Origin: an uncultured Alphaproteobacteria bacterium
GTDB lineage: Bacteria; Pseudomonadota; Alphaproteobacteria; HIMB59; GCA-002718135
Direction of reading: 5' to 3'
DNA length: 64,000 bases
Assembly: GCA_902619045.1 (NCBI GenBank)
Contig: CACNCX010000001.1
Coordinates: 592-64,591, forward strand
Below are positions 101-47,628 of this stretch, piece by piece. How positions within the stretch are numbered: the first letter of the stretch is position 1; every line of letters starts with the position of its first letter. Under the pieces are notes generated by a model that worked only from the letters and a program-made list of their open reading frames with translations, was not told the DNA's origin and did no database searches. Both the position numbers and the translations under genes were made by a program.

Positions 101-292
101 TTATAAAATAATATCAAAAACTCTTTCCTTATCTTTTTCTAAAACTTTTTTTATTTTAAACTTTGCAGTTTTTGTAAGCTTCATACCTTTATTAGTCACA
201 AATGATTTCATTTTAATTACTTCTTTTTCCGGCATTTTTCTTTCATATTTCAAAATATGTTTCTTTCCACTAATCATAAATGCTGTCTTCAT
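101..292 (-). CDS. Hypothetical small basic protein (63 aa, Lys-rich)
   Basis: ORF track. AAAGGAG Shine-Dalgarno about 7 nt upstream of the ATG at 292. The purine-rich coding strand matches the other minus-strand genes. No family recognised. Confidence 0.55.
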   Translation of the reverse strand: MKTAFMISGKKHILKYERKMPEKEVIKMKSFVTNKGMKLTKTAKFKIKKVLEKDKERVFDIIL

Positions 293-310
293 ATTTTATC
301 TCCTTTATGT

Positions 311-343
311 TTAAGAGAGGTAGATTACCTCTCTTAATTTTTT
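311..343 (+). terminator. Perfect 10-bp hairpin followed by T6, terminator-like only in the + orientation
   Basis: Stem ttaagagagg (311-320) / cctctcttaa (328-337), 7-nt loop, TTTTTT at 338-343. On the minus strand the hairpin is followed by AAACAUAAAGGAG, with no U-tract. Confidence 0.45.
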
Positions 344-352
344 ATATAAGTA

Positions 353-1639
353 TTAATCTCTAATTGAATAAGCTACCACTCCAACCTCGGCTTTATCAGT
401 ACCAAGTTTTTCAGCTTCTTCACTTATTCTTAATCCCATAATATTTTTAATTAAATATATTACAATATATGAGAAAACAAAAACAAAGATACACACTGAT
501 GCGACACCCAGTAATTGAATTGAGTATGATGCATCAGGATTAGTTAGAGGGACAACTAATGTTCCCCAAATACCAGCAAACATATGTACGGGTATTGCAC
601 CAACAACATCATCTAGTTTTAATGAATTTAAAAAGTTAGTTCCATAATACATTATTACTCCACCAACTGCCCCAATTCCGATTGCAAGCAATGGACTAGG
701 CATTAATGGCTCAGCTGTTATTGAAACTAAACCTGCAAGTGCTCCATTAAGCATCATGACAATATCAGTTTTTCCACCTATTAATCTTGTTATTGCTGCG
801 CCAGCCATACATCCACCACACGCTGCAAGTTGAGTGTTCATGAAGATTTTTGACATTGCTGTTGCATCTTCATAAGAACCTAATGCAAGTTGCGATCCGC
901 CATTAAAACCGTACCAACCCATCCATAAAATAAATGTTCCTAATGTAACTAAAGGAATTGATGATGGAGCAAATGGAGCCATATTAGCTGGTTCTCCACT
1001 CGCACTGAATCTTCCAAGTCTTGGACCTAAAAGAATTACTCCTGCTAAAGCTGCAGAACCACCGCAAGCGTGGACTAATGTTGAGCCAGCAAAATCTGCA
1101 AAACCTAGGGCGTCTAACCATCCTCCACCCCATTCCCAACCCATTTGAATTGGATAAATTACTCCTCCAAGAACTGCAGCAAAAGTGAAGAAAGGCCAAA
1201 TTTTTATTCGCTCTGCAACAGCACCAGATACAATTGAAACAGTTGCACAAACAAATAAAGCTTGAAAAAACCAATCTGACGCATCTGAATAACCTGTTTC
1301 CATAGATGAATTATCAGTCCATATAGATGGTGTACCAACATAACCTCCTTCAGGAACAGAATATCCAAGATTATAGCCAATTAAATAGAAAACAATTGAA
1401 ACAATTGCGAACTTTCCAATATTTTTAGCAGCAATAGTTGATACACTTCTCGTTGTAACGAGACCTGATTCTAAAAATAGAAATCCTGCAGCCATCCACA
1501 TGACTAAAAATCCACATACTAAAAAAGAAAATGTATTAAATATATATGCTACTTCAGCGTCAACCTCTGCTCTCACAGATGAACTTAGCAATAAAATAAA
1601 AGAGAAAATTGCAAAAAGACTAAAAAATTTTTTATACAT
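353..1639 (-). CDS. amt: Ammonium transporter (Amt/AmtB family), paralog 1, 428 aa
   Basis: The translation has Amt-family blocks (AAGFLFLESG, FAGSTLVH, GFNGGS, VGAIPVH). N-terminal signal-like segment ...SSSVRA/EV. SD uauauGGAGuu upstream of the ATG. Confidence 0.95.
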   Translation of the reverse strand: MYKKFFSLFAIFSFILLLSSSVRAEVDAEVAYIFNTFSFLVCGFLVMWMAAGFLFLESGLVTTRSVSTIAAKNIGKFAIVSIVFYLIGYNLGYSVPEGGYVGTPSIWTDNSSMETGYSDASDWFFQALFVCATVSIVSGAVAERIKIWPFFTFAAVLGGVIYPIQMGWEWGGGWLDALGFADFAGSTLVHACGGSAALAGVILLGPRLGRFSASGEPANMAPFAPSSIPLVTLGTFILWMGWYGFNGGSQLALGSYEDATAMSKIFMNTQLAACGGCMAGAAITRLIGGKTDIVMMLNGALAGLVSITAEPLMPSPLLAIGIGAVGGVIMYYGTNFLNSLKLDDVVGAIPVHMFAGIWGTLVVPLTNPDASYSIQLLGVASVCIFVFVFSYIVIYLIKNIMGLRISEEAEKLGTDKAEVGVVAYSIRD

Positions 1640-1667
1640 TATTTAACTCCATATAAAATTATAAACA

Positions 1668-1688
1668 CATAACTAACCTTTAGTTATG
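1668..1688 (-). promoter_or_regulatory. Leader hairpin between the riboswitch aptamers and the amt1 SD (expression-platform candidate)
   Basis: Minus strand CAUAACUAA-AGG-UUAGUUAUG followed by UGUUUAUAAUUUUAUAUGGAG. The amt2 leader has a hairpin at the same position with a different sequence. Confidence 0.5.
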
Positions 1689-1730
1689 CATTACTTCATG
1701 CGTAGCTATGGAAATTAATTAATAAGATCC

Positions 1731-1781
1731 GCGTTCCTTCGGGTATACCTACTTCCGATTTGCAAACTGCAAATTGAACGA
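1731..1781 (-). promoter_or_regulatory. Glutamine riboswitch (glnA RNA motif)-like aptamer, gene-proximal copy, amt1 leader
   Basis: Minus strand UCGUUCAAUUUGCAGUUUGCAAAUCGGAAGUAGGUAUACCCGAAGGAACGC. It has a CGUUC...GGAACG closing helix, an internal hairpin, CGGAAGUAG, a short hairpin and GAAGGAACGC, as I recall the glnA RNA consensus. Confidence 0.75.
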
Positions 1782-1797
1782 TTTAATAACTTTGCAT

Positions 1798-1848
1798 GCG
1801 TTCCTTCGACTTTCGTCTACTTCCGTCACCCTATAAGATGATGAACGT
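1798..1848 (-). promoter_or_regulatory. Glutamine riboswitch (glnA RNA motif)-like aptamer, distal copy, amt1 leader
   Basis: Minus strand ACGUUCAUCAUCUUAUAGGGUGACGGAAGUAGACGAAAGUCGAAGGAACGC. Same signature, with a GAC-GAAA-GUC tetraloop hairpin. Separated from the proximal aptamer by a 16-nt linker. Confidence 0.75.
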
Positions 1849-1916
1849 GATATGACTTATAACAACTATTTAGAAAGTATCAATAAATAGTATTTAATTT
1901 AATTACTAAAATATAA

Positions 1917-2291
1917 TTAGTTTTCTAAACTCATTTTATTAAAAAAAGTTCCTTCTTTTTTTAACCAACCATTAATCGTATCAAGAAAATTGTTGCTTAA
2001 ATAGTAGTTTTTGATTCGTTTGTCAGATTTACTTTGCTCTTTAACAAAAATATTTTTTTCTAAAGCTTCGTTTAAAATTGATTGAATAGATGATCTGGAG
2101 CCAATTGATTTAGGTATATTTGCACATATTGCTTCAAATGAAATTCCACTTAGCATATTATTTTCATAAATTTCTAGAGAGATCACGTGGTGTAAAATTG
2201 ACTTGAATAAAAATTTTGAGACATAATCTTCTGAAAAGAAGCTTGAATATATATTTCTTTTCTTTTCTTTAATAATTTCTGTTTCTGTCAT
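1917..2291 (-). CDS. Hypothetical 124-aa protein, possible winged-helix DNA-binding protein
   Basis: ORF track. GGAG 8 nt upstream of the ATG. The segment ISFEAICANIPKSIGSRSSIQSILNEALEKNIFVKEQSKSDKRIKNYYLS resembles helix-turn-helix plus a wing (D-K-R-x-K-x-Y-x-L-S, MarR/PadR-like). Judged by eye only. Confidence 0.6.
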   Translation of the reverse strand: MTETEIIKEKKRNIYSSFFSEDYVSKFLFKSILHHVISLEIYENNMLSGISFEAICANIPKSIGSRSSIQSILNEALEKNIFVKEQSKSDKRIKNYYLSNNFLDTINGWLKKEGTFFNKMSLEN

Positions 2292-2321
2292 TTGAGTCTC
2301 CGACTAATATTTAGCAAATTC

Positions 2322-2341
2322 GGGAGAGCAAATGCTCTCCC
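2322..2341 (-). terminator. GC-rich hairpin downstream of amt2 (terminator-like)
   Basis: GGGAGAGC-AUUU-GCUCUCCC on the minus strand, followed by GAAUUUGCUAAAUAUU (weak U-tract). It lies 50 nt after the amt2 stop. Confidence 0.5.
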
Positions 2342-2391
2342 ATTTATTAGTGACCAACTATAAGGAGTTGATTTGCTAATCACTAAATTCA

Positions 2392-3678
2392 TTAGTCTCT
2401 GATGCTGTAAGCCATAACACCTACTTCAGATTTATCAGTACCAAGTTTTTCAGCTTCTTCACTAATTCTAATACCAAAGAGCATTTTCATGATGTACCAA
2501 ATGATAAATGATACAACAAAAACGAAAACATTAATTGCAATTATACCGTAAAGTTGTGCGCCAAAACTTGCTGCACTATTAGAAATTGGAACAACTAATG
2601 TTCCAAAAATTCCAGCAAAACCATGTACAGGAATTGCTCCAACAACATCATCAATTTTAAATGAAATTAAAAGTCTTGTTCCATAGAACACAATTAATCC
2701 ACCAATTGCACCAATGATTACTGCTAGGAATGGCGAAGGTGCTAATGGTTCTGCAGTAATTGCTACTAAACCACCTAGTGCACCATTAAGCATCATTACA
2801 ACATCTGTTTTACCAGTTACTAACCTTGAAATAACTGCACAAGCCATTACACCTGCACCAGCTGCCAAGTTAGTATTTATATATATAGTCGCTACTGCTG
2901 TAACGTCATCGAATGTACCCATTGCTAATTGTGATCCACCGTTAAATCCGAACCATCCGAGCCATAGAATAAATACACCAAGAGTTGCAAGAGGTATTGA
3001 AGAATTTGCAAAAGGCTCCATTGGAGCTGCTTCACCGCTATCAGTGAAACGTCCTAATCTTGGACCTAGTAAAATCGCACCAGCTAGTGCTGCTGCTGCC
3101 CCTGCACTGTGAACTAGAGTTGATCCAGCAAAATCTGAGAAACCTGCTTCTGCTAAGTATCCTCCACCCCACTGCCAACCCATTTCGATTGGATAGATGA
3201 AACCAGTTAATAAAGCACAAAAAATAAAGAATGGCCAAATTTTGATTCTTTCAGCTAGTGTTCCAGATACAATTGAGCAAGTTGTTGCACAAAATACCAT
3301 CTGAAAGAACCAGTCAGAACCATCTGAATAACCTGTATCAAGAGCGCTACCATCACTCCAAGGAAGTGGAGATCCAATAAAACCGCCTGCAGGAATGCCA
3401 TATGCCATGTTATATCCAACTAACCAGAACATTAAACCAGCTATTGAATATAAGCCTATATTTTTTGCAGCAATTGTTGCTACACTTTTGGACGTAACAA
3501 GTCCTGATTCAAGCATTGCAAATCCTGCTGCCATCCACATGACTAAGAACCCAGATACAAGAAATAGGAATGTATTTAAAATGTATTGCACTTCACCGTC
3601 TACTTCGGCTCTTGCATATGAACTGAAGAGCATAAAGACAGCAAGAATGCTAATGAAATATATAGATTTTTTTAACAT
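2392..3678 (-). CDS. amt: Ammonium transporter (Amt/AmtB family), paralog 2, 428 aa
   Basis: About two-thirds identical to paralog 1 by eye, with the same length and C-terminus (RISEEAEKLGTDK.EVGV.AYSIRD). Start moved from 3708 to the ATG at 3678 (MLKKSIYF...). That start has a GGAGG SD at 3683-3687 and aligns with the paralog 1 N-terminus. Confidence 0.95.
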   Translation of the reverse strand: MLKKSIYFISILAVFMLFSSYARAEVDGEVQYILNTFLFLVSGFLVMWMAAGFAMLESGLVTSKSVATIAAKNIGLYSIAGLMFWLVGYNMAYGIPAGGFIGSPLPWSDGSALDTGYSDGSDWFFQMVFCATTCSIVSGTLAERIKIWPFFIFCALLTGFIYPIEMGWQWGGGYLAEAGFSDFAGSTLVHSAGAAAALAGAILLGPRLGRFTDSGEAAPMEPFANSSIPLATLGVFILWLGWFGFNGGSQLAMGTFDDVTAVATIYINTNLAAGAGVMACAVISRLVTGKTDVVMMLNGALGGLVAITAEPLAPSPFLAVIIGAIGGLIVFYGTRLLISFKIDDVVGAIPVHGFAGIFGTLVVPISNSAASFGAQLYGIIAINVFVFVVSFIIWYIMKMLFGIRISEEAEKLGTDKSEVGVMAYSIRD

Positions 3679-3705
3679 TAATCCTCCATTATAAATTTCA
3701 CTGTA

Positions 3706-3726
3706 CATGACTCACATTGAGTCATG
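3706..3726 (-). promoter_or_regulatory. Leader hairpin between the riboswitch aptamers and the amt2 SD (expression-platform candidate)
   Basis: Minus strand CAUGACUCA-AUG-UGAGUCAUG, followed by UACAGUGAAAUUUAUAAUGGAGG. Same position as the amt1-leader hairpin, but the sequence is unrelated. Confidence 0.5.
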
Positions 3727-3770
3727 CGTTACTTTTCATGCTTAGCTATGGAAATTAAATAATAAGATCC

Positions 3771-3822
3771 GCGTTCCTTCGGGTTCAACCTACTTCCGAT
3801 TTGCCATAGGCAAATTGAACGA
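3771..3822 (-). promoter_or_regulatory. Glutamine riboswitch (glnA RNA motif)-like aptamer, proximal copy, amt2 leader
   Basis: Minus strand UCGUUCAAUUUGCCUAUGGCAAAUCGGAAGUAGGUUGAACCCGAAGGAACGC. The internal helix differs from the amt1 copy by a compensatory A-U to C-G change. Confidence 0.75.
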
Positions 3823-3838
3823 TATTATAACTTTGCAT

Positions 3839-3889
3839 GCGTTCCTTCGACTTTCGTCTACTTCCGTCACCCTGTAAGGTGATGAACGT
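3839..3889 (-). promoter_or_regulatory. Glutamine riboswitch (glnA RNA motif)-like aptamer, distal copy, amt2 leader
   Basis: Minus strand ACGUUCAUCACCUUACAGGGUGACGGAAGUAGACGAAAGUCGAAGGAACGC. It differs from the amt1 distal copy at 2 positions: one converts a U.G pair to C-G, the other is in a loop. Confidence 0.75.
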
Positions 3890-3965
3890 GATTACTGATT
3901 TAGTTTAATATTAATTTTTAGTAAGATTATAATCGTTAACATTAATATGCAAAAAATGCATATAG

Positions 3966-3995
3966 TAATATTTCCCTGTTTTATGGGAAATATTA
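3966..3995 (-). terminator. 11-bp hairpin immediately after the upstream oxidoreductase gene
   Basis: taatatttccc (3966-3976) / gggaaatatta (3985-3995), 8-nt loop, starting 1 nt after the stop at 3997. On the minus strand it is followed by CUAUAUGCAUUUUUUGC, a displaced U-run. Confidence 0.5.
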
Positions 3996-3996
3996 G

Positions 3997-7690: not shown

Positions 7691-8944
7691 TTAATTTATA
7701 CGTGATTGGATTTTATCAATATTTTCAAGTTTAGATAATGGTCCAATACTTGATATAGTTATTGGCCCTTTTACAATTTCATTAGCAATCTTTTGAACAG
7801 TTTCTTTAGAGACCTTGTCTATATTTTTAATAGTTTCAGCTGGGTCGATTATTCTATTAAAGACCAGAAGTTGTCTAGCAGCACTTTCACATCTTCTAAA
7901 TGCACTTTCTCTTCCCATCATTAAACTTGCTTTCAACTGAGCTTTACCTCTATTAATTTCCTTGTCTGTAATTGAGTTAGGACTTTCGTTTAATTGATCA
8001 CATAAAACAGGTATGAGTTCTTGAATTTGATTTTCTCCTGTCCCACAATAGATACCAAAAACACCTGTATCAGTGTAAGATGAGCTGAAAGAGGAAATGC
8101 CATAAACAAGGCCACGTTTCTCTCTAATCTCTTGAAACAATCTTGATGACATACCTCCACCTAATAAAGAAGAGTAAACCAATAAAGAGTAGTAGTCATC
8201 ATGGTGGTAATCTATACCTTCAAAACCAAGCAATAGATGAATCTGTTCTAATTTTTTATCTTCTCTGTATTCTCCAGATTTATAATCTGCTTTTTGTCTT
8301 TCAGTATATAATCCAGTTGGAAGATTAGTGCATGATTTTTTGATTGATTCTACAAATTGATCATGGTCAATTTTTCCTGCTGCGCTTATAATCATTTTTT
8401 TTGGATTATAATGATTCATCATAAAATCTTTTACTTCGTCTCTTGAAATATTTTTAATAATATCAGTTTTACCCAATATGGAACGTCCCATTGGCTGATC
8501 TGGGTATGCTTTTTCTTGCCAATAATCAAAAATCATGTCGTCAGGAGTATCAAGGTACATTCCAATTTCTTGAATTATAACTCCTCTTTCTCGGTTAAGT
8601 TCATCTTCAGCAAATGTAGAATTTTGCAAAATATCTGTCAGAATATCTATTCCATAATGTAGATCATCAGCTAAGAGCTTTACATAATAAGCTGTTATTT
8701 CCTTTGAAGTATAAGCATTTATATCTCCACCAACATTTTCAATTGTTTCAGCAATTTGAAGAGCATTTTTAGTTGATGTACCCTTAAAAGCCATATGCTC
8801 TAAAAGATGAGCAACACCATTTATGTCTTTTGTTTCATCTCTACCACCAACAAAATTCCAAATACCCATTGATACTGTTTCCAGCCCTGGCATATTCTGG
8901 GTTACTATTCTTAATCCGTTTTCTAGTGTTGTAATTTTATGCAT
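7691..8944 (-). CDS. M16-family zinc peptidase (processing-protease-like)
   Basis: Inverted zinc motif HLLEHMAFKG (HxxEH). 417 aa. Confidence 0.9.
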   Translation of the reverse strand: MHKITTLENGLRIVTQNMPGLETVSMGIWNFVGGRDETKDINGVAHLLEHMAFKGTSTKNALQIAETIENVGGDINAYTSKEITAYYVKLLADDLHYGIDILTDILQNSTFAEDELNRERGVIIQEIGMYLDTPDDMIFDYWQEKAYPDQPMGRSILGKTDIIKNISRDEVKDFMMNHYNPKKMIISAAGKIDHDQFVESIKKSCTNLPTGLYTERQKADYKSGEYREDKKLEQIHLLLGFEGIDYHHDDYYSLLVYSSLLGGGMSSRLFQEIREKRGLVYGISSFSSSYTDTGVFGIYCGTGENQIQELIPVLCDQLNESPNSITDKEINRGKAQLKASLMMGRESAFRRCESAARQLLVFNRIIDPAETIKNIDKVSKETVQKIANEIVKGPITISSIGPLSKLENIDKIQSRIN

Positions 8945-39109: not shown

Positions 39110-40360
39110 TTATTGATTAAATTCCCAAGCTTCTTGAACAGCTTGAGTAGCTTCTTCAGGAGTAATAATTCCTGCCGCTAAATCAGTAGATACGTCATTA
39201 ACAACCCTACCAATATCTGCACCCAAGAACTGATCATAAAATATTTGATGATATTCTGAGTTAGAGATATTTTGTGCAACTTGTTGCAAGAAAGGATTTG
39301 TAAGAGATACATCAGCACCTTTCACGATAGGTATATAAGCACCTTTTCCTGCATCATCTTTTTGAATATCAAGAGATACATAATGCATAATAAATTCAAC
39401 TGCTGAGTCAGGAGCACTGCTTGAGAATAGCCATCCATTTATACCACCAAGTGTATCACCAGCGTCACCGAGACCACCACTCGTCATTGGCATGTTAAAC
39501 ATTCCCATATTATCGTCTCCTAAACCTTCACCACTTGAACTGTTAGCTTTTTGAGAACCATACATCCAGTTACCCATAAGTGCCATTGCACATTTACCGT
39601 CTCCAAAAAAACCTGCCTGATCTGGCCAAGTGTGTGATAAAAATCCTTTTTGAAAAGGTTCTAAAGCAACTAGCTCGAGCATTTGCTCACCTGATTTTAA
39701 GTATTCTGGTCTATCCCAACCACCATTATTAAGTGATTCAAGGAATAATCCTTTTCCACCATTTCTTATGTGGAGGTGTGTCCAAAGAAAGTGAACAGGC
39801 CATTTATCTTTACCACCCATACAAATAGGAGTAATTCCTGCTGCTTTGATTTGTTTTACAGCACTAATTAAATCATCCCATTCTTTGATGGCTGAAACGT
39901 CAACTCCGGCTTGATTGATAAGATCTTTGTTATACCACCAAGCAACTTGTGATACTTGTAAAGGTAAACCTACTCTTTGACCTTCAAATGTAAAAGCATC
40001 TGCTGCTGCTGCACTAACAGTATCCAAATAACTATCTGGTACAACATTGGAGATATCTCTTAAAAAACCAGCTCTGGCTTGATCATACATAACTCCGCCA
40101 CTCCAGCTATAAAATATATCTGGTCTATCATTTGATTGAAGCATTGTAGGTAACTTTGCTTTGAATGATTCATTTTCTAAATACTGCATAACAACAGTGT
40201 GTCCTGTTTTAGCTTCAAATTCTTCAACAGCCCTAACCATGTTAGCATATGAACTTGAGTCTTCACCAAATAAGTGAAGCCACTTTATAGTATCTGCTTT
40301 AACAGAACTAAATGACATCAAAATAGTTAGTGAGAAAAATATTTTTAGTAATAATTTCAT
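39110..40360 (-). CDS. Extracellular solute-binding protein, family 1 (CUT1 sugar ABC)
   Basis: Sec signal MKLLLKIFFSLTILMSFSSVKA, 416 aa, strong SD (GGGAGGA). First gene of the operon. Confidence 0.9.
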   Translation of the reverse strand: MKLLLKIFFSLTILMSFSSVKADTIKWLHLFGEDSSSYANMVRAVEEFEAKTGHTVVMQYLENESFKAKLPTMLQSNDRPDIFYSWSGGVMYDQARAGFLRDISNVVPDSYLDTVSAAAADAFTFEGQRVGLPLQVSQVAWWYNKDLINQAGVDVSAIKEWDDLISAVKQIKAAGITPICMGGKDKWPVHFLWTHLHIRNGGKGLFLESLNNGGWDRPEYLKSGEQMLELVALEPFQKGFLSHTWPDQAGFFGDGKCAMALMGNWMYGSQKANSSSGEGLGDDNMGMFNMPMTSGGLGDAGDTLGGINGWLFSSSAPDSAVEFIMHYVSLDIQKDDAGKGAYIPIVKGADVSLTNPFLQQVAQNISNSEYHQIFYDQFLGADIGRVVNDVSTDLAAGIITPEEATQAVQEAWEFNQ

Positions 40361-40486: not shown

Positions 40487-41992
40487 ATGAAAAATAAACC
40501 AAACATCATTATATTTAATCCAGATCAATGGAGAGGAGATATGCTTGGATATCTTGGTTATCCAGGTGCACAAACCCCTAATTTAGATAATATAATTAAA
40601 GAAGACGCAGTTGCATTTAAGAATGCTTTTTGCCAAGCGACAGTTTGTACACCAAGTCGTTGCTCATTTATGACTGGCTGGTATCCACATGTGCATGGTC
40701 ATAGAACAATGCATTATATGCTACATACTGATCAAGGAGACTCTAGTATTTTATCCGAACTAAAAAATAAAGATTACTTTATTTGGTGGGGTGGAAAAAA
40801 TGATTTGATAGCAGGACAAGAGGGTTATCGTAATCATTGTGATATTTATTTTGAACCAACTGATAGAGATTTTCAAAAATGGGGCTATACTCAACAACCA
40901 GGCACACATGGGGGAGATTTATCATGGCGAGGGCCTGAAGATGGAGATAATTATTATAGTTTCTTCAAAGGAAAATTAGATAAAAAAGATAAAGATATTT
41001 ATTTCGATGACGATTGGTCCATGGTTTATGGAGCATTAGATTTTGTAAAAGATTATAAAGAAGATAAACCATTCTGTTTATTTCTACCACTTGGTTATCC
41101 ACATCCTCCTTACTGTGTAGAGGATCCATGGTTCTCTTCAATTGATCGAAGCGTAATACCTAATAGATATCAATACAAAACTTGGGAAGACAAGCCAAGT
41201 CTTCTAAAAGGAATTATGGATGGGCAAAGAATGCAAGATTGGACCGATGAACGTTGGAATGAATTACGAGCAGTATATCTTGGTATGTGTGCAAGAGTAG
41301 ATTATCAATTTGGACTTTTGGTCAATCAACTTAAAGAAAATAATTTGTATGATGATACTTTAATAATTTTTTTATCTGATCATGGTGACTTTACAGGTGA
41401 TTATAATTTAGTTGAAAAAACACAAAATACTTTTCAAGACTGTCTTACTAATGTTCCTCTTATTATTAAACCGCCAAAAAGTGAAAATACATTAAATGGA
41501 GTAAGCGATACAATGATTGAATTAATTGATATTGCTGGAACCATATATGATTACAGTAATATCGAGCCCTCATATTGGCATTTTGGCAAAAGTATTAAAA
41601 ATTTTATTGAACAGAAAACTGATAATCATAGAGAAGAAGTATTTACGGAGGGTGGTAGACTTAGATTAGAAAGACAAGCAAGTGAAAATCAAAGTCTTCA
41701 ATTACCCCATGGTCTTTATTATCCTAGAGTTAGTTTACAAGGTCAAGAGGATGAAATTTTAATGCATACTAAAGCAACAATGTGCAGAAATAAAAAATTT
41801 AAATATATTAAAAGAGCTTACGAGAAAGATGAGTTTTATAATTTAATCGAAGATCCTGGAGAAATTAATAATGTTATTGATGATCCTAAATATGGGTCAG
41901 AACTTAAAAAACTAAAAGATAAAATGCTTTCATGGTATCAAGAAACTTGTGATGTTGTTCCATTAAAAGGTGATGAAAGAGATTTCAATTAA
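40487..41992 (+). CDS. Cys-type sulfatase (S1 / arylsulfatase superfamily), no signal peptide
   Basis: IIIFNPDQWRGD first strand begins at residue 8. Active-site C-T-P-S-R (VCTPSRCSFMTG). LSDHGD block. Confidence 0.9.
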   Translation: MKNKPNIIIFNPDQWRGDMLGYLGYPGAQTPNLDNIIKEDAVAFKNAFCQATVCTPSRCSFMTGWYPHVHGHRTMHYMLHTDQGDSSILSELKNKDYFIWWGGKNDLIAGQEGYRNHCDIYFEPTDRDFQKWGYTQQPGTHGGDLSWRGPEDGDNYYSFFKGKLDKKDKDIYFDDDWSMVYGALDFVKDYKEDKPFCLFLPLGYPHPPYCVEDPWFSSIDRSVIPNRYQYKTWEDKPSLLKGIMDGQRMQDWTDERWNELRAVYLGMCARVDYQFGLLVNQLKENNLYDDTLIIFLSDHGDFTGDYNLVEKTQNTFQDCLTNVPLIIKPPKSENTLNGVSDTMIELIDIAGTIYDYSNIEPSYWHFGKSIKNFIEQKTDNHREEVFTEGGRLRLERQASENQSLQLPHGLYYPRVSLQGQEDEILMHTKATMCRNKKFKYIKRAYEKDEFYNLIEDPGEINNVIDDPKYGSELKKLKDKMLSWYQETCDVVPLKGDERDFN

Positions 41993-42909
41993 TATAATTC
42001 GTTTTCAATTCTTGTAAGCCAATAGTCGACATCCATTTTCTTGTGACCAGTTAATAACCTCCAAAACTTGACAACATTTATTTTATCAAGTCTATTAGTA
42101 TCTGCTTCTTGCCAAGGATAGGACCTCATTAAAATATCATTGATAGTTTGATCCTTAGTTTCATCAGTCCAATACAAAGCTCGGTTTGGTAAAGGTTGAT
42201 ATTTTTTTTCAGGATCCCATAATAGTTCCTGTTTCTCAGTAGGCTGTAATCTTACTTTAAACATATATCTGATATCATCTGAAAAATTAACTCCAGCACC
42301 ATGCCACAATCCATTATGAAAAATTCCTATTGTACCTGCTTTACATATGATATTTTTTTGTCCTTTTATATTTTGATATTTTGCGATTCCCATTTCATTT
42401 ACAATTCTTAAATGTGTACCAGGAATATATCTTGTACCACCCATTTCTTTAGTAACAGCAGTTGGAAAGTAAAATAATTGGATATCGAAAGTAGTTCTTG
42501 GATCAATTGTGCTATCTTGATGATTAACTTGTGACATTTGTCTTTGATTTGCTTTTGCATAATATTTAGAAGGAAATGTTAAGTGAAGAAATTGATGGTC
42601 AACTACAGTTTTTGAACCAACTAAACTATTGATTGCTCCTGAGACAATTTCATTTTTAAATATTTTTTCCAAAGGAGAGTTTAAAGGGTAGGCATCTTTC
42701 AATGCAGTCCCAGCAGGTATTCTAGGTATACTACTAGAGGATTTTATATTTTGAAAGTAGTGCTGAATATTATCAACATCATCAATATCAGTATGCCCAA
42801 TATCATTTAAAAATTCTTTATTGATATCTTCATCAATTAAACCTTCAAAAAAAAGACAGCCACTATTGGCAAATTCTGCCATTTGCTCAGTTGACAATAA
42901 TTTTGTCAT
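41989..42909 (-). CDS. Phytanoyl-CoA dioxygenase (PhyH)-family Fe(II)/2-oxoglutarate oxygenase
   Basis: H-x-D (VNHQDS), a distal His (GLWHGAG) and Arg (RYMFKVR). 306 aa. Confidence 0.8.
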   Translation of the reverse strand: MTKLLSTEQMAEFANSGCLFFEGLIDEDINKEFLNDIGHTDIDDVDNIQHYFQNIKSSSSIPRIPAGTALKDAYPLNSPLEKIFKNEIVSGAINSLVGSKTVVDHQFLHLTFPSKYYAKANQRQMSQVNHQDSTIDPRTTFDIQLFYFPTAVTKEMGGTRYIPGTHLRIVNEMGIAKYQNIKGQKNIICKAGTIGIFHNGLWHGAGVNFSDDIRYMFKVRLQPTEKQELLWDPEKKYQPLPNRALYWTDETKDQTINDILMRSYPWQEADTNRLDKINVVKFWRLLTGHKKMDVDYWLTRIENELY

Positions 42910-42910
42910 T

Positions 42911-43189
42911 TTAAAAATCTCCTTCTTCTATTTTTTCAAAAAAAAACTCATGCTTTAAATATGAAGTTCTAAATTCTTGACCAGGATGCTCTGGAATAGA
43001 TTGACTCGATTGAAACAATCTCCATCCATCCAATAAAGCGTCAAGACCAGTGGGATAAGGTGGTTCATCACTATCCCCTGTCATATGAAGTTTTTTTCCT
43101 GTCCCATCAAATGTTGCCCAAGAAATAACTTCTGCTTCTAGACTTGGAAACTTTAAATAAAGAACTAAAACTTTTTGTCTTTTAGTCAT
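42911..43189 (-). CDS. Hypothetical 92-aa cytosolic protein
   Basis: ORF track. Its ATG directly abuts the upstream sulfatase stop (TAAATG), and its own stop lies 1 nt before the PhyH ATG. No family recognised. Confidence 0.65.
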   Translation of the reverse strand: MTKRQKVLVLYLKFPSLEAEVISWATFDGTGKKLHMTGDSDEPPYPTGLDALLDGWRLFQSSQSIPEHPGQEFRTSYLKHEFFFEKIEEGDF

Positions 43190-44701
43190 TTAGTTTTCTT
43201 TAAAATAATTTTTTAATAATTCCTTTGGAGGATCATATGTTTTAATTTCATTCAGCATAAGATTTTTATATTTGTTTATCAAATCTTCATCATTAATAGG
43301 GTTTAATTGGCCAGGATCTTCCTTCAAATTATAAAGAGCACATTTAGTATCTTCTAATGATTTATGTGGATCCGATTTTCTAAGAATTCTATTAACTTTC
43401 ATTACTGGAATATTTTTAGTAAAGTTAAATGGCTCATGCATTGTAGCAGTTTGCAACTCTTCGTGTGAAAAAAATTGCCTCATATTGGTTGGCATCAATG
43501 TATATTGAAATCTACTTCTATCGTATTGATCAAAATTTTCTGGAAAATGAAAATATGTATAATTTCCATCGGATATATTTATTCCCCCGCCCCAATATCC
43601 ATACAAAGCAAAATGCTCATTTTCACTGTCTTTATCTAGAAAGTTTAATATAGATTTACCTTTAACCTCTTTAGGAAGATTGTGACCATGCATTGTCATG
43701 AATGTTGGCATCAAATCAATATTTTGAGTTACAACATTTCTTTGCTCGCCAGAATATTGTTTGTATTCCGGGTGATAAAAATAAAAAGGTATATTTGCAA
43801 TTTCATTATACAAAGGCATTCTGTTTTTAGCCCACCAATCATGTTCTCCGAGCATGAAACCATGATCTGTAGTTAAAATCAATGCAGTATCATTCCATAA
43901 ATTATTTTCATCAAAATAATCTAAAACCGTACCAAGTAAATAATCACATAGACCAACTAAAGCAATGTAATTGGCTTTTAACTCTGCAACCTCATCATCT
44001 GTTTCTTTCACTCTATCATACTGAGGCCAATCTAATCTTGGGCCAGTATAATTTGTTTTTAGTTTTTCTCTAAATCGCTCTGGCGCAAAAAAAGGTTCGT
44101 GAGGATCAAAAGTTTCTAGTTGAAGAAACCAATTATCAGCATCTTTATTAATATTTATAAAGTCTAAACCAGATTCAAAACATTTAACTGAAGGAAAATC
44201 TTTTTCTTCTTTAATAAATTCACTATTGATTGCGTAATGATAATAACCTGTTTCCCTATCAGTTAAATTTAATTGTGATTGATGATATTTTTCTCTTAAT
44301 TTTTCAAGTGGTGGTTGAACCATGGCTTTCCACGGGTCACTCTCTTGTCCTCTAATAAAATCCCATGAGTTAAATCTATTATGATAGGTTGCGCCACCAT
44401 CTTCAAAGTAATGATAATGATCAGTCACAAGATGAGTATACGTATTATTTAGTCTTAAGATTTCTGGAAATGAATTATCAAATGGTTCTAATGGACCCCA
44501 TGCACGGTGAAGAAAACTTAATCGACCTGAATGCATATCACGTCTTGCCGGCATACATGGCATACTACCAATATAATGATTATTAAATTGAACTGATTTT
44601 TTTGCTAATCTGTTAAAATTTGGTGTTTCAATATATTTACCACCATAAGAATTTAACATTCTTTTATTTAATGAATCAAATAAAAGAAAAACTGTTTTCA
44701 T
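43190..44701 (-). CDS. Cys-type sulfatase-family protein, variant N-terminal metal motif, no signal peptide
   Basis: C-M-P-A-R (GSMPCMPARRDMHSG). TTDHGFMLGEH block. The first strand reads LLFDSLNKR rather than the usual DD/DQ. Confidence 0.85.
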   Translation of the reverse strand: MKTVFLLFDSLNKRMLNSYGGKYIETPNFNRLAKKSVQFNNHYIGSMPCMPARRDMHSGRLSFLHRAWGPLEPFDNSFPEILRLNNTYTHLVTDHYHYFEDGGATYHNRFNSWDFIRGQESDPWKAMVQPPLEKLREKYHQSQLNLTDRETGYYHYAINSEFIKEEKDFPSVKCFESGLDFININKDADNWFLQLETFDPHEPFFAPERFREKLKTNYTGPRLDWPQYDRVKETDDEVAELKANYIALVGLCDYLLGTVLDYFDENNLWNDTALILTTDHGFMLGEHDWWAKNRMPLYNEIANIPFYFYHPEYKQYSGEQRNVVTQNIDLMPTFMTMHGHNLPKEVKGKSILNFLDKDSENEHFALYGYWGGGINISDGNYTYFHFPENFDQYDRSRFQYTLMPTNMRQFFSHEELQTATMHEPFNFTKNIPVMKVNRILRKSDPHKSLEDTKCALYNLKEDPGQLNPINDEDLINKYKNLMLNEIKTYDPPKELLKNYFKEN

Positions 44702-44732
44702 AAATACCAGACTAATACGAAAAAAATAATTA

Positions 44733-46100
44733 TTAAAGTTTTTTCTTTAATCTATGAAAAGAATCAGGATTTAATCCCATTTGACCAGGATTATTTACAT
44801 TTTTAGCTTTTGTAATTTTAGTTGTTATATTTTCAACTTTTTTAATTTTACTTTTAATCTTTTTTCTTAAGGAGGTTACTATTTCATCATAAGTACTAAT
44901 ACCAATTAAGTTATTTAATTCATACGGATCAGCATCAAGATCGTATAAATTTGTCTCTGTGTATTGATTAGATGAAGGTTTATCACTCCCATTAGAGTCT
45001 TGATCAGCAATACAATATTTCCATTTTTCAGTTCTTAAACTTCTAGCTAATTGACTCTCACTTATTTGAACAAAAATTTCATTTTCCCATTTTTTTGATA
45101 TTTTATTTACCAAGGGCAATACTGATCTACCATCACAATGAGAGGTATTTTTGACTTTTGCCAAATCTAAGATTGTTGCATGAATATCTAATATATTGGT
45201 TAGTTCTTTTATACGTCCACCTTGTTGGAAAACATTTCCAATTAAAGAAGTAGGAACCCGTATTGAACTTTCATGACATGAACGTTTATATTCTCTATTT
45301 CGTGTTTTAAAATTATTTCCATGATCTGATGTAAAAATAATTGCACTATCATCAAATAATTTTAAGCTTTTAATTACATCAATCATTCTTCCATAAGCTT
45401 CATCTATTCTCTTCACCATTCCATAATAACCTCCTAAATGTCGAGGAGAAGATCCAACCAGAGATGAAAGATCTGGAGGAGACCACTTACCTGTATATTT
45501 TTCTCTGTATCCAATAGGTGGTGGATAATCATCTGTATTGTTTTGGTGATGTGGCTCAATAAGAGAAACGAAAAGAAAAAATGGTTTTTTTTGATTTAGT
45601 TTTATAAAATTTATAGCTGCATCAGTTATTGCATCAACTCTATATCCTGGAAGAAATACTTTTTTATTTTGTCCATCATAAACATATGTTTCATAAGCAT
45701 CGGAAGTAAATTCTAAAAGATTTGATCCCAACCAATAATCATAACCACCTCTATCCTCTTTTTTAACCGGTTCAGATGAGCCGAGGTGCCACTTTCCAAT
45801 ATATCCAGTAGCATATCCTTCTTTTGATAAATGTTTTGCAAGAGTTTTAATATTTTTTTTTAAAGGTATTCTATTTTTAAAACATCCAGTCTTTGTTGCA
45901 TACATTCCTGATTGTAATGAAGCTCTTGCAGGCCCACAAACTGGTTGGCATGTAAATGAGTTATAAAGATGTGTACCTTCAACTGCATAATGATCGAAGT
46001 TCTCCATCAAGGATAATGGATTGCCATGTAAACCAGAAGTATCCCAGCGTTGTTGATCAGTAAAAAATACAATAATATTTGGTTTAGATTTAATATTCAT
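44733..46100 (-). CDS. Cys-type sulfatase, no signal peptide
   Basis: IIVFFTDQQRWD, C-G-P-A-R (VCGPARASLQSG), TSDHG. Confidence 0.9.
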   Translation of the reverse strand: MNIKSKPNIIVFFTDQQRWDTSGLHGNPLSLMENFDHYAVEGTHLYNSFTCQPVCGPARASLQSGMYATKTGCFKNRIPLKKNIKTLAKHLSKEGYATGYIGKWHLGSSEPVKKEDRGGYDYWLGSNLLEFTSDAYETYVYDGQNKKVFLPGYRVDAITDAAINFIKLNQKKPFFLFVSLIEPHHQNNTDDYPPPIGYREKYTGKWSPPDLSSLVGSSPRHLGGYYGMVKRIDEAYGRMIDVIKSLKLFDDSAIIFTSDHGNNFKTRNREYKRSCHESSIRVPTSLIGNVFQQGGRIKELTNILDIHATILDLAKVKNTSHCDGRSVLPLVNKISKKWENEIFVQISESQLARSLRTEKWKYCIADQDSNGSDKPSSNQYTETNLYDLDADPYELNNLIGISTYDEIVTSLRKKIKSKIKKVENITTKITKAKNVNNPGQMGLNPDSFHRLKKKL

Positions 46101-46112
46101 TATTATTTAGAT

Positions 46113-47612
46113 TTATTTACTAAAAGGTTTTCCTTTATATTTCCTAAGATTGTCAGCGTGTTTTTTTCTATCTGTTTTTTCAAGACGCTCAACATATGTA
46201 TTCCAGACTTTTGAATAAATATTTGCATGATGAGGACCACCTTCTCTAATTACACCTTGAAGTGGATCTCCTCTATCAGCCTCATACATATTTTCTTCAA
46301 TCCACTCATCGATTAAAAACATACCATGAGCTACGAGATCTTTATGCTGATTTGCTAGGTTATTCAACTCATGCGGATCTTTTTCAATATCAAACAGCAT
46401 ATATTTTGGAAAATCTTTTAAACCAGTATCGTACGTTCTTATTAGTAACCAATTATCCCATCTTACAGATCTTTGACAACTCCAAGCACCATGACTAATA
46501 ACTAAATAATCTCTTCCATTTGATGATTTACTATTTGTTAAATTTTCAGTGAAATTAATACCATCCCATCTGTCAGGTTGAGAAGATGAAGTAATTTGAG
46601 AAATAGTTGAAGTTAAATCTAAATTATAAAATTTATTTTCTATAGTACTTCCTTTATTTGTATCTGTTATCCCCGGCCATCTGATTATTAATGGAACTCT
46701 ATTAGTTATATGATCAGCTGTTTGGTGATCTCCCCATACATTTAACTCACCTTGATTTTCTCCGTGGTCTGCTGAAATAATTATTGCAGTATCATCCCAA
46801 AGATTCATTTTTTTTAAATCTTCAAAAACTTTATTTAAATAAAAATCTGCGTATTTAATTCCAGTGTCATACGCATCAATTTGTTCTTTAGCATCAGAAG
46901 TATTTTTAATTTCGCCCACTCCCATTGTATACTTTCCTCCAAGATCTTCATCAAATCCTGGAACTTCTCTAGCGCTATGCGGTCCAAAACTATTCCTTTG
47001 TTTTTTAATTAATTCTTCTGTCACCCATTCTTCAATAGGATCATCTTTAAAAGGATTTCCAAAGTCTTCAGGTGTATCATACGGAGTATGAGGATCCCAC
47101 ATATTTACATGTAAGAACCAATTTTCTTTTTCTCCATTATTTTCTAACCACTTTTTTATGACAGGGTAGACTTCATCAGCATTTTCTAAACCACCTTTTC
47201 CAGTGTCATACGTTTCGGTAAAACCAAACCAAACTTGATAAGCTGTATGTCTTTCAGGGAAAGGACTGATACTTGCTGTATAATATCCTGCATCTCGAAG
47301 AACTTTTCCAAGAGATGTAAAAGCATATTCTCCTCTTAAGCCGCCTTTAAATTCTCTATTCCAAATATTTTTTCTAGGAGCAATATCAGAGAATTCACCG
47401 CCATGATTAACAACTCCAGTTTTGAAACCAAAATTACCTCCAAACAAAGCAGTTCTACTAGGTAGGCACGGTGTGTCAGTTGAATAAAAATTTGTAAACT
47501 TGACTCCTTCTTTTGCTATTGAATCAATCGTAGGAGACGTATTTCTATGATAACCATAACATCCTAAGTGATCAGGTCTTAAAGAGTCTATGTCTACGTA
47601 TAAAATTCTCAT
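46113..47612 (-). CDS. Cys-type sulfatase-family protein, variant N-terminal metal motif, no signal peptide
   Basis: MRILYVDIDSLRPDH, C-L-P-S-R (TPCLPSRTALFGG), SADHGEN. Confidence 0.85.
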   Translation of the reverse strand: MRILYVDIDSLRPDHLGCYGYHRNTSPTIDSIAKEGVKFTNFYSTDTPCLPSRTALFGGNFGFKTGVVNHGGEFSDIAPRKNIWNREFKGGLRGEYAFTSLGKVLRDAGYYTASISPFPERHTAYQVWFGFTETYDTGKGGLENADEVYPVIKKWLENNGEKENWFLHVNMWDPHTPYDTPEDFGNPFKDDPIEEWVTEELIKKQRNSFGPHSAREVPGFDEDLGGKYTMGVGEIKNTSDAKEQIDAYDTGIKYADFYLNKVFEDLKKMNLWDDTAIIISADHGENQGELNVWGDHQTADHITNRVPLIIRWPGITDTNKGSTIENKFYNLDLTSTISQITSSSQPDRWDGINFTENLTNSKSSNGRDYLVISHGAWSCQRSVRWDNWLLIRTYDTGLKDFPKYMLFDIEKDPHELNNLANQHKDLVAHGMFLIDEWIEENMYEADRGDPLQGVIREGGPHHANIYSKVWNTYVERLEKTDRKKHADNLRKYKGKPFSK

Positions 47613-47628
47613 CTTTATCCTTTCTTAA

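Follow-up and report, generated by a model that had tools for sequence, protein, structure and literature searches.

The window analyzed here is a 64,000-nucleotide stretch (G+C ~31%) of contig CACNCX010000001.1 from the uncultured alphaproteobacterial assembly GCA_902619045.1. Near its start, it carries two ammonium transporter (amt) genes in tandem, each behind a leader with two glutamine riboswitch aptamers; all features of this locus lie on the minus strand. The upstream gene, amtUp (2392..3678), and the downstream gene, amtDn (353..1639), each encode a protein of 428 amino acids (aa) that matches PF00909 over its full length (profile positions 3–399), with E-values of 2.2e-97 and 2.5e-96, respectively. 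The two proteins share 65% identity and 81% positives in BLASTP without a single gap, and their coding sequences share ~74% DNA identity. The pore motifs SDFAGSTLVH or ADFAGSTLVH, GFNGGS, and IPVH could be recognized by eye in both, and the closest matches among solved structures are Amt proteins. For amtUp, the 428-aa start is the better call because a GGAGG (3687–3683) lies 5 nucleotides (nt) before the ATG at 3678, whereas the ATG at 3708, which would yield a 438-aa product, falls within a hairpin of the leader. A first-pass annotation of this DNA had described two Amt paralogs of equal length, each with its own tandem-aptamer leader, and the profile searches bear this out.

Glutamine aptamers

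An Rfam scan of the window at the gathering threshold (score 35 for RF01739) returned exactly four matches, all to RF01739 (Glutamine) and all spanning positions 1–53 of the 53-position model. In the amtUp leader, aptamer 1 occupies 3836..3890 (61.8 bits, E 3e-11) and aptamer 2 occupies 3768..3823 (56.9 bits, E 6.8e-10). The corresponding aptamers of the amtDn leader lie at 1795..1849 (60.2 bits, E 8.4e-11) and 1728..1782 (55.4 bits, E 1.8e-9). The distance from the end of aptamer 2 to the start codon, on the same strand, is 89 nt for amtUp and 88 nt for amtDn.

Covariation was analyzed in 36 diverse homologous leaders, filtered to less than 93% similarity. The P2a, P2b, P3a, and P3b pairs each show 5–15 double-sided compensatory changes, and the aptamer P1 is invariant. 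With the named structure, 90.1% of cells are paired, compared with 26–40% when the partners are slid, and the observed covariation score was reached by 0 of 500 shuffles. On this comparative evidence, the RF01739 matches appear to be functional aptamers under selection.

Leader anatomy and candidate expression platform

Each unit contains a promoter-like site. Upstream of amtUp, a consensus scan found TTTGCA-16-TATAAT (3926..3953), a 10/12 match of a kind that is as frequent in shuffled sequence, which makes it a candidate promoter only. The counterpart before amtDn, TTGATA-16-TATAAG (1856..1883), was recognized by eye as a second candidate; it ends ~7 nt before aptamer 1 and went unreported by the scanner, its last −10 base being G. 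Inverted repeats, read from the sequence, accompany both sites: the 7-bp ATATGCA-N5-TGCATAT (3963–3945) overlaps the upstream −35 hexamer, and ACTATTTA-N11-TAAATAGT (1891–1865) encloses the downstream one. The two repeats differ in sequence, and they may be operators, for example for the protein of the open reading frame between the units (ORF124), or chance occurrences in AT-rich DNA. Since each amt gene has its own promoter-like site and its own tandem-aptamer leader, the sequence is most naturally read as placing both genes under glutamine-responsive RNA control.

A comparison of 71 unique amt and glnA (glutamine synthetase) leaders revealed a common plan. Aptamer 1 is followed by GCAUGCAAA(A)GUUAU.AAAU, aptamer 2, and a short variable stretch, which in amt leaders holds a GGAU…UUCC hairpin. 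The 3′ part opens with UUUC(C)AUA(G/A)CUA..GCAUGA; then come a spacer, a hairpin that is free in sequence and whose loop often includes GGU, the Shine-Dalgarno (SD) sequence, and AUG. Both the linker and UUUC(C)AUA..GCAUG occur in 71/71 leaders, and the GCAUG 3′ strand is invariant in 36/36 leaders of the covariation set, although the search pattern placed no constraint on it.

In the amtUp leader, the linker between the aptamers (3824..3839) contains CAUGC (3839–3835) and AGUUAU (3832–3827), which we propose as the 5′ strand of a bridge helix. The conserved platform element UUUCCAUAGCUAAGCAUG (3737..3754) holds two segments: UUUCCAUA (3754–3747) is complementary to the SD region of amtUp, and AUAGCU..GCAUG (3749–3737) is complementary to the linker, with which it pairs in minimum free energy (MFE) folds. 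The variable hairpin (3705..3727) lies between this element and the SD. The platform of amtDn (1640..1727), ~90% identical to that of amtUp, is built in the same way, with UUUCCAUA at 1714–1707, GCAUG at 1701–1697, a hairpin at ~1693–1666, and GGAG at 1650–1647. Compensatory changes distinguish the variable hairpins of the two window leaders, and a hairpin of unrelated sequence occupies the same place in other lineages.

The bridge helix, formed by the linker with AUAGCU..GCAUG, is plausible from the sequences: it appears in the MFE folds of the window leaders and of two other loci (L012 and L099) and also in RNAalifold. Duplexes between the anti-SD, UUUC(C)AUA, and its cognate SD region average −6.5 kcal/mol, compared with −3.8 for shuffled regions. 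Anti-SD variants with a single C co-occur with GUGAGG and those with a double C with AUGGAG, a correspondence matched by 79 of 2,000 permutations. RNAalifold also predicted a third competitor, in which GGAA, from the 3′ strand of aptamer-2 P1, pairs with UU(U/C)C.

Related loci in marine metagenomes

A pattern scan of metagenome contigs, using the 3′ core of aptamer 1 plus the linker, yielded at least 120 loci; the regulon counts given here are those among the matches listed. They include 97 tandem arrays and 85 complete tandem units, 41 of which precede amt and 37 a type I glutamine synthetase gene (glnA), with a few before other genes. Double riboswitch–amt units occur in at least six further contigs from diverged lineages. 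A full-length PII gene is present in 52/120 loci. In every glnA-type locus that shows PII, the gene is on the aptamer strand and stops ~45 nt short of aptamer 1; the order is thus glnB–tandem riboswitch–glnA. A single locus among those listed (L185, 35% GC, 150–1955, minus strand) combines a glutamine aptamer with amt (433 aa) and, 18 nt downstream, PII (112 aa).

Tandem glutamine aptamers were also seen before two other gene types (L190, 2191–2305 and downstream; L090; L142; L144). In one case, the product is a circularly permuted ATP-grasp protein of 468 aa (PF14403/PF04174); in the other, it is a conserved secreted protein of 120–127 aa with no Pfam match, and here the aptamers are split by a longer spacer.

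Identity of the host

The exact AmtDn protein and the whole locus also occur in GCA_902612825.1 and GCA_902584805.1, and the AmtDn copy of the single-cell genome AG-891-K21 (L015) is 99% identical. All three genomes are placed in o__HIMB59; f__GCA-002718135; g__AG-337-I02 (PMC11366302 supplements), a genus that corresponds to AEGEAN-169 clade II “Ca. Indicimonas”, with genomes of ~1.6 Mb and 29% GC (PMC11366302). By sequence identity to genomes of that genus, the host is a member of “Ca. Indicimonas”. Genomes of this group have up to two ammonium transporters and ~5 sulfatases each (PMC11366302); the window fits, with two amt and exactly five sulfatase genes (PF00884). The sulfatase genes form a cluster (40487–49170), with one gene on the plus strand (40487–41992) and four on the minus strand (43190–44701, 44733–46100, 46113–47612, and 47629–49170).

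A SAR11 host was considered, given the low GC, the best Amt matches, and the NCBI label “Pelagibacteraceae”, and was ruled out by the sulfatases, the PII gene described below, and the Genome Taxonomy Database assignment. The best genome matches for Amt are Pelagibacteraceae-labelled single-cell genomes, at only 63–77% identity, and by its gene content and sequence relationships the host is not SAR11 in the strict sense. Except for one locus (L012), the Rfam scan found zero glutamine aptamers at the Pelagibacteraceae-labelled amt loci examined. Five of these (L001, L002, L014, L016, and L017) carry an Up-type and a Dn-type amt in tandem, 160–290 bp apart, without glutamine aptamers, winged-helix gene, or glnK; these SAR11-type pairs are probably the equivalents of SAR11_0049/0050.

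Proposed switch mechanism and its sign

We propose that each amt gene would be transcribed from its own promoter, with a 5′ untranslated region of ~210–240 nt that holds two glutamine-I aptamers and one shared platform. In one fold, the linker CAUGC..AGUUAU would pair with AUAGCU..GCAUG, nesting aptamer 2 in a bridge helix stacked on aptamer 1; in the alternative fold, the overlapping UUUC(C)AUA would pair with the SD. Because the bridge and SD pairings overlap and are mutually exclusive, the leader would act as a two-state translational switch. We infer that glutamine is bound, and that its binding to both aptamers would shift this competition and thereby set the translation of amt and glnA, with SD sequestration as the likely means of control. 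Glutamine would repress (OFF), providing a cis-acting copy of the GlnD/PII/NtrBC control that governs glnK–amtB and glnA in other Alphaproteobacteria. The same cassette is found between glnB (PII) and glnA elsewhere in the genome. The amt locus has lost glnK, a MarR/SarA-like gene, presumably a regulator, fills the slot after amtUp, and PII is retained as a glnB-type protein with a divergent T-loop. We assign a probability of about 70% to this explanation as a whole, that is, a branch of a glutamine-riboswitch regulon with two old amt duplicates, OFF translational control, and a retained PII. For the OFF translational switch taken by itself, we put the odds somewhat above even.

In bacteria studied so far, nitrogen limitation induces the genes of all three contexts (amt, amt–glnK, and glnA downstream of glnB), and for this reason an OFF sign is expected. 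Klahn 2018 called negative regulation “reasonable”, as a conjecture (PMC6212724).

A number of observations weigh against this account. Bridge helix b lacks double compensatory changes, showing only G-U/A-U alternation, and is paired in 57% of cases in the MAFFT alignment, a figure that is low in part because the alignment sets the amt and glnA classes one column out of register. Leaders of the L099-3368 type show no convincing complementarity between anti-SD and SD. All characterized glutamine riboswitches are ON switches (PMC6212724), and in a nearest-neighbor model a stabilized P1 favors the bridge and lowers anti-SD/SD pairing, which is ON-like behavior. In that model, the pairing falls from 0.29 to 0.07 for the amt class on P1 stabilization, and the unpaired probability of the amtDn SD rises from 0.08 to 0.68. 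The amtUp leader did not change in the P1 soft-constraint model, and the glnA-class leaders have little predicted bridge. A U-rich tract often follows the variable hairpin, with transcription attenuation as an alternative. Finally, the PII gene was seen on a conspecific contig, outside the window's own assembly, and the MarR assignment of ORF124 depends on weak scores (0.003 for sequence, 0.026 for fold).

For amtDn, anti-SD/SD pairing emerges in the nearest-neighbor model once the aptamer P1 is destabilized, and constraint folding with P1 forced versus free left SD accessibility unchanged. Taken together, the forced-versus-free and soft-constraint models are not decisive on the sign.

The strongest competing explanation keeps the same anatomy and reverses the sign: glutamine would turn amt and glnA ON, as in the cyanobacterial gifB riboswitch. 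A ligand-stabilized P1 would lock the bridge, keep UUUCCAUA off the SD, and permit translation, as the modeling with bonuses or penalties on P1 suggests. Every experimentally tested glutamine riboswitch activates (PMC6212724), genes associated with glnA RNAs are down-regulated on nitrogen depletion (Weinberg 2010, PMC2864571), and Smith 2013 proposed that one SAR11 Amt is produced solely when nitrogen is replete, for ammonia efflux (PMC3870248). Against an activating switch, making glutamine synthetase and ammonium importers at high glutamine clashes with physiology, including at the amt–glnK locus L185. The model also omits the tertiary structure of the aptamer (E-loop and pseudoknot) and gives zero switch for the amtUp leader, and the GGAA:UU(U/C)C alternative from RNAalifold would free the anti-SD only when P1 forms, which is OFF behavior. 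We judge the ON sign unlikely, at perhaps one chance in four.

Slightly less probable still is a transcriptional riboswitch, in which the variable hairpin would be an intrinsic terminator that depends on aptamer occupancy; this or another mode takes up what the two translational signs leave. A U-rich tract follows the hairpin in many leaders, above all in the glnA class (for example GGGUA..UACCC-UUUUGUUG in L207), and an attenuator between glnB and glnA would uncouple the two cistrons. Yet the hairpin sequence drifts freely while the upstream segments are conserved, and no antiterminator pairing stands out as conserved. A poor U-tract, UACAGUGAAAU, follows the amtUp hairpin (3727–3705), and the stems are AU-rich.

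PII at and away from the amt locus

The first-pass annotation had noted that amtB is commonly paired with glnK and that no PII gene adjoins either copy here, and both statements hold. In 37 of ~50 non-Pelagibacter alphaproteobacterial orthologous loci, glnK lies immediately upstream of amt; Pelagibacter-labelled orthologous loci are likewise without glnK. Searches of the window with approximate E. coli GlnB/GlnK sequences (E ≤ 10) and with probes from divergent marine PII proteins (E ≤ 1e-3) detected no PII gene, and none is annotated in the next 10 kb beyond the window start on conspecific contigs.

A conspecific contig of 633,637 nt (ERZ28548088 monsoon_2__contig_10419) carries the duplicated riboswitch–amt locus at 85–97 kb, where 6,292 nt align to the window at 97.8% identity. 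Its 405–426 kb region has lon–clpX–clpP–tig on one strand and, on the opposite strand, an aminotransferase gene, PII, two RF01739 aptamers (64.3 and 65.7 bits), and glnA. This PII (113 aa, PF00543 E 2e-33; L207, 9411–9752) lies ~320 kb from the amt locus. As one contig bears both PII and the amt locus, PII was lost only from the latter. On these sequences, the species has PII, and its riboswitch regulon comprises at least amtUp, amtDn, and glnA.

The PII of this contig, a glnB-type protein and the only PII so far found in the species, has intact B-loop and C-terminal motifs. Its T-loop is divergent (GFGRQRGSTGGIDPNDGYDDEF, compared with GFGRQKGHTELYRGAEY in E. coli) and does not contain the ELYRGAEY segment, which we take to hold Arg47 and Tyr51 of E. 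coli GlnK/GlnB. Among the matches listed, this T-loop type is found in most glnB–riboswitch–glnA loci, with canonical loops in L149 and L118. Because the segment is missing, classical plugging of Amt by such a PII appears doubtful. A riboswitch can substitute only for the expression arm of PII/NtrBC control, not for the fast post-translational block by GlnK.

HIMB59 (AEGEAN-169 clade I) has glnB–glnA and glnK–amtB, with glnB, glnD, and glnK reported (Smith 2013, PMC3870248). In clade II, glnK was evidently lost from amt, and glnB–glnA was kept, with the riboswitch acquired or retained there. Getz 2023 makes no mention of glnK, glnD, or ntrBC, nor do KEGG terms for these genes turn up in the supplementary tables consulted for PMC11366302.

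It would be possible to read the locus as that of a PII-less organism, comparable to SAR11 subclade Ia, in which glutamine riboswitches took over the control of ammonium uptake altogether. The empty window and adjacent 10 kb and the Pelagibacter-labelled orthologous loci without glnK fit such a reading, as does the report that SAR11 subclade Ia is without glnB, glnD, glnK, and ntrBC, together with the speculation there that riboswitches control Amt paralogs (PMC3870248). The organism belongs to the AEGEAN-169/HIMB59 order and not to SAR11, and HIMB59 itself has glnB, glnD, and glnK (PMC3870248). The PF00543 protein beside glnA on the conspecific contig and the PII genes that adjoin the riboswitch in 52/120 related loci among the matches listed also speak against it. 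Furthermore, where SAR11 Ia-type loci hold this amt pair, both the aptamers and glnK are absent, and the loss of glnK and the gain of the riboswitch are therefore separable. At the level of the genome, these sequences contradict a PII-less organism, which we regard as improbable.

The suggestion that RNA-based glutamine sensing replaces PII thus survives in part. Each copy has its own tandem leader and glnK is absent locally, but the genome does hold a PII gene, followed by a third tandem riboswitch and glnA, and replacement at the genome level fails. A PII gene elsewhere that regulates these transporters had been named as one finding that would overturn the suggestion; the first half of this, a PII gene elsewhere, is what the conspecific contig shows. 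RNA would supplement PII here rather than replace it.

Origin of the two units

A protein identical to AmtDn is encoded on at least 23 contigs, including two single-cell genomes and several long-read contigs, and each of these single-cell and long-read contigs shows identical gene order and four aptamers. The locus is no assembly artefact, as the same architecture is present in single-cell genomes and independent long-read contigs.

In Pelagibacteraceae Up/Dn pairs, each Amt copy is closest to its positional counterpart. Since the pair exists in SAR11-type loci without aptamers, the amt duplication is old and the riboswitch is lineage-specific. Explaining the units by recent duplication, an assembly artefact, or decay into functionless relics is contradicted and may be set aside: the leaders resemble each other more (85%) than the coding sequences do (~74%), which could hint at recent copying, but the proteins are only 65% identical, the Up/Dn pair is common to Pelagibacteraceae, the architecture recurs in single-cell, long-read, and diverged lineages with compensatory aptamer changes, and both amt reading frames are intact with conserved motifs.

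The window leaders (3895–3676 versus 1854–1637) share 85% overall identity, which rises to ~90% for the stretch between aptamer 1 and the SD, and their aptamers are nearly identical. In the double units of other lineages (L099, L127, L182, and L198), the leaders are 72–74% identical and the downstream linker is shortened (CAUGCAAGUUAAU). The comparison suggests leader homogenization by gene conversion in the window lineage, and selection or local gene conversion accounts for the likeness better than recent copying does. It had been proposed that the two transporters may differ in affinity or regulatory set-point; leaders this similar lend the set-point idea no support, and a functional difference between the copies, if any, more likely lies in the proteins.

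The gene between the units

The first-pass annotation made one omission, the 124-aa open reading frame between the two units (ORF124, 1917..2291). The protein has no Pfam match on its own. Its family, which carries the motif GSRSTI..ILN...F..K....DKR.K.Y, comprises ~120 clusters at 50% identity, and a length of ~120 aa is close to that of SarA. A profile of 45 homologues matched only SarA/MarR chains in the PDB, weakly (best E 0.003), and 10/45 members matched PF22381 (SarA/Rot; best E 0.0017). The AlphaFold2 model, with a predicted local distance difference test score of 70, has an H-H-H-H-E-E-H topology, as expected of a winged helix (helices, a β-hairpin wing, and a C-terminal helix), and the top 50 Foldseek matches are all of the MarR family, again weak (E ≥ 0.026, template modeling score about 0.3). 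A MarR/SarA-like winged-helix protein is consistent with these models and profiles, if weakly. A divergent PII, suggested by the PII-like size and the position beside amt, was ruled out by Pfam, the PII probes, the helical model, and the SarA/MarR profile.

An ORF124-type gene lies 60–110 nt downstream of the AmtUp-type gene in 11/34 units with enough downstream sequence, and never after AmtDn-type genes; the proteins are 50–80% identical across lineages. The gap between amtUp and ORF124 holds a strong hairpin and a U-rich tract, lineage-specific in sequence and found at the same place in 10 other lineages. If this hairpin terminates partially, the ORF124 gene is probably reached by read-through. 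As far as we found, the conserved linkage of this family to riboswitch-controlled amt has no description in the literature. In one further locus (L153, 1436–1973, minus strand), a tandem leader with an SD and a 9-codon remnant is followed directly by an ORF124-type gene, apparently through deletion of amtUp.

Other features of the locus

Read 5′ to 3′, the locus begins with a GFO/IDH/MocA oxidoreductase gene (5148–3997), followed by a terminator-like hairpin (3995–3966). A GC-rich terminator-like hairpin follows amtUp (2322..2341), and another terminator-like hairpin follows amtDn (311..337). Beyond it lies ORF63 (101–292), which encodes a small, very basic protein of 63 aa with no Pfam match. 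Its cluster at 90% identity has 356 members, the exact sequence occurs on 221 contigs, and its position after amtDn is constant in conspecific contigs. On the 4231-nt AG-891-K21 contig (L015), the sequence ~2 kb past amtDn and ORF63 matches window 7772–8289, the M16 peptidase gene, an order that implies a differing arrangement or a chimeric contig. Elsewhere in the window, solute-binding-protein genes (39110–40360 and 50981–52513) border the sulfatase cluster, and there are several GFO/IDH/MocA and xylose-isomerase-like TIM-barrel genes.

Comparison with known systems and implications

The window leaders share with glutamine-I riboswitches the consensus, the P1 sequence CGUUC/GAACG, the CGGAAGUAG and GAAGGAACG cores, and the linkage to nitrogen genes, including ammonium transporters and glnA. 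Ames and Breaker 2011 is reportedly a further source on this class, also called glnA RNA, alongside Weinberg 2010 and Klahn 2018. Weinberg 2010 listed ammonium transporters, glnA, and PII genes among the targets and noted tandem copies in marine metagenomes (PMC2864571). In cyanobacteria, the class was validated by Klahn 2018 as switching gifB ON; outside this group, it was known just from metagenomes of unassigned taxon, and the effect of glnA-linked copies was left undefined (PMC6212724). The characterized cases are thus cyanobacterial, have a single aptamer, and turn gifB ON, whereas the window host belongs to AEGEAN-169 clade II and is a heterotrophic alphaproteobacterium, amt and glnA themselves are targeted, with an expected OFF sign, and the aptamers are paired, with a conserved linker, a platform, and a putative bridge helix. 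Other tandem-aptamer riboswitches (glycine; SAM-II/SAM-V of Pelagibacter) likewise place two ligand-binding domains in one leader with one platform, and there too a conserved linker sequence hints at structure between the domains. They differ in that both aptamers of a window leader are glutamine-I, with aptamer 2 predicted to nest in a helix of linker and 3′ flank.

Relative to the glnK–amtB operon of Proteobacteria, the window Amt proteins are orthologous, with 55–63% identity to alphaproteobacterial AmtB, but neither copy has an adjoining glnK, leader RNA replaces the NtrC-dependent promoter region, and a putative winged-helix gene rather than PII follows amtUp. HTCC1062 (“Ca. Pelagibacter ubique”) is also a streamlined, low-GC marine alphaproteobacterium with several Amt paralogs, including a tandem amt pair (SAR11_0049/0050) without adjoining glnK, and riboswitch control of Amt has been proposed for it (PMC3870248). 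It lacks PII entirely, in contrast to the window species, and its regulated Amt genes have other, uncharacterized leader motifs, the tandem pair being constitutive (PMC3870248).

What is new here is the host, the three-leader regulon, its coexistence with PII, the conserved platform, and the putative winged-helix gene linked to amt; in the open-access literature, we found no paper tying glutamine riboswitches to AEGEAN-169. A bolder possibility, which we hold only tentatively and consider rather unlikely, is that these are the first repressing glutamine riboswitches, built as one nested two-aptamer device and working with a T-loop-divergent GlnB and an amt-linked MarR-like regulator in an undescribed nitrogen circuit of AEGEAN-169. 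In that case, the riboswitch may have displaced glnK and an NtrC-type promoter at amt and inserted itself into the glnB–glnA operon.

The findings assign a host to the large marine-metagenome class of tandem glnA RNAs, whose taxon was left unassigned by Klahn 2018, and place amt, amt, and glnA in one regulon within a single species. Glutamine riboswitches and PII coexist, even inside a glnB–glnA operon, which corrects the idea that RNA replaces PII. The linker, UUUCCAUA, and P1 provide concrete sequences with which to probe OFF behavior and the tandem aptamers as one unit. AEGEAN-169 clade II reaches up to ~5% of cells at the South Pacific Gyre's surface (PMC11366302). In terms of the marine nitrogen cycle, the regulon suggests that, in an abundant oligotroph, the glutamine pool directly sets how ammonium is taken up and assimilated.

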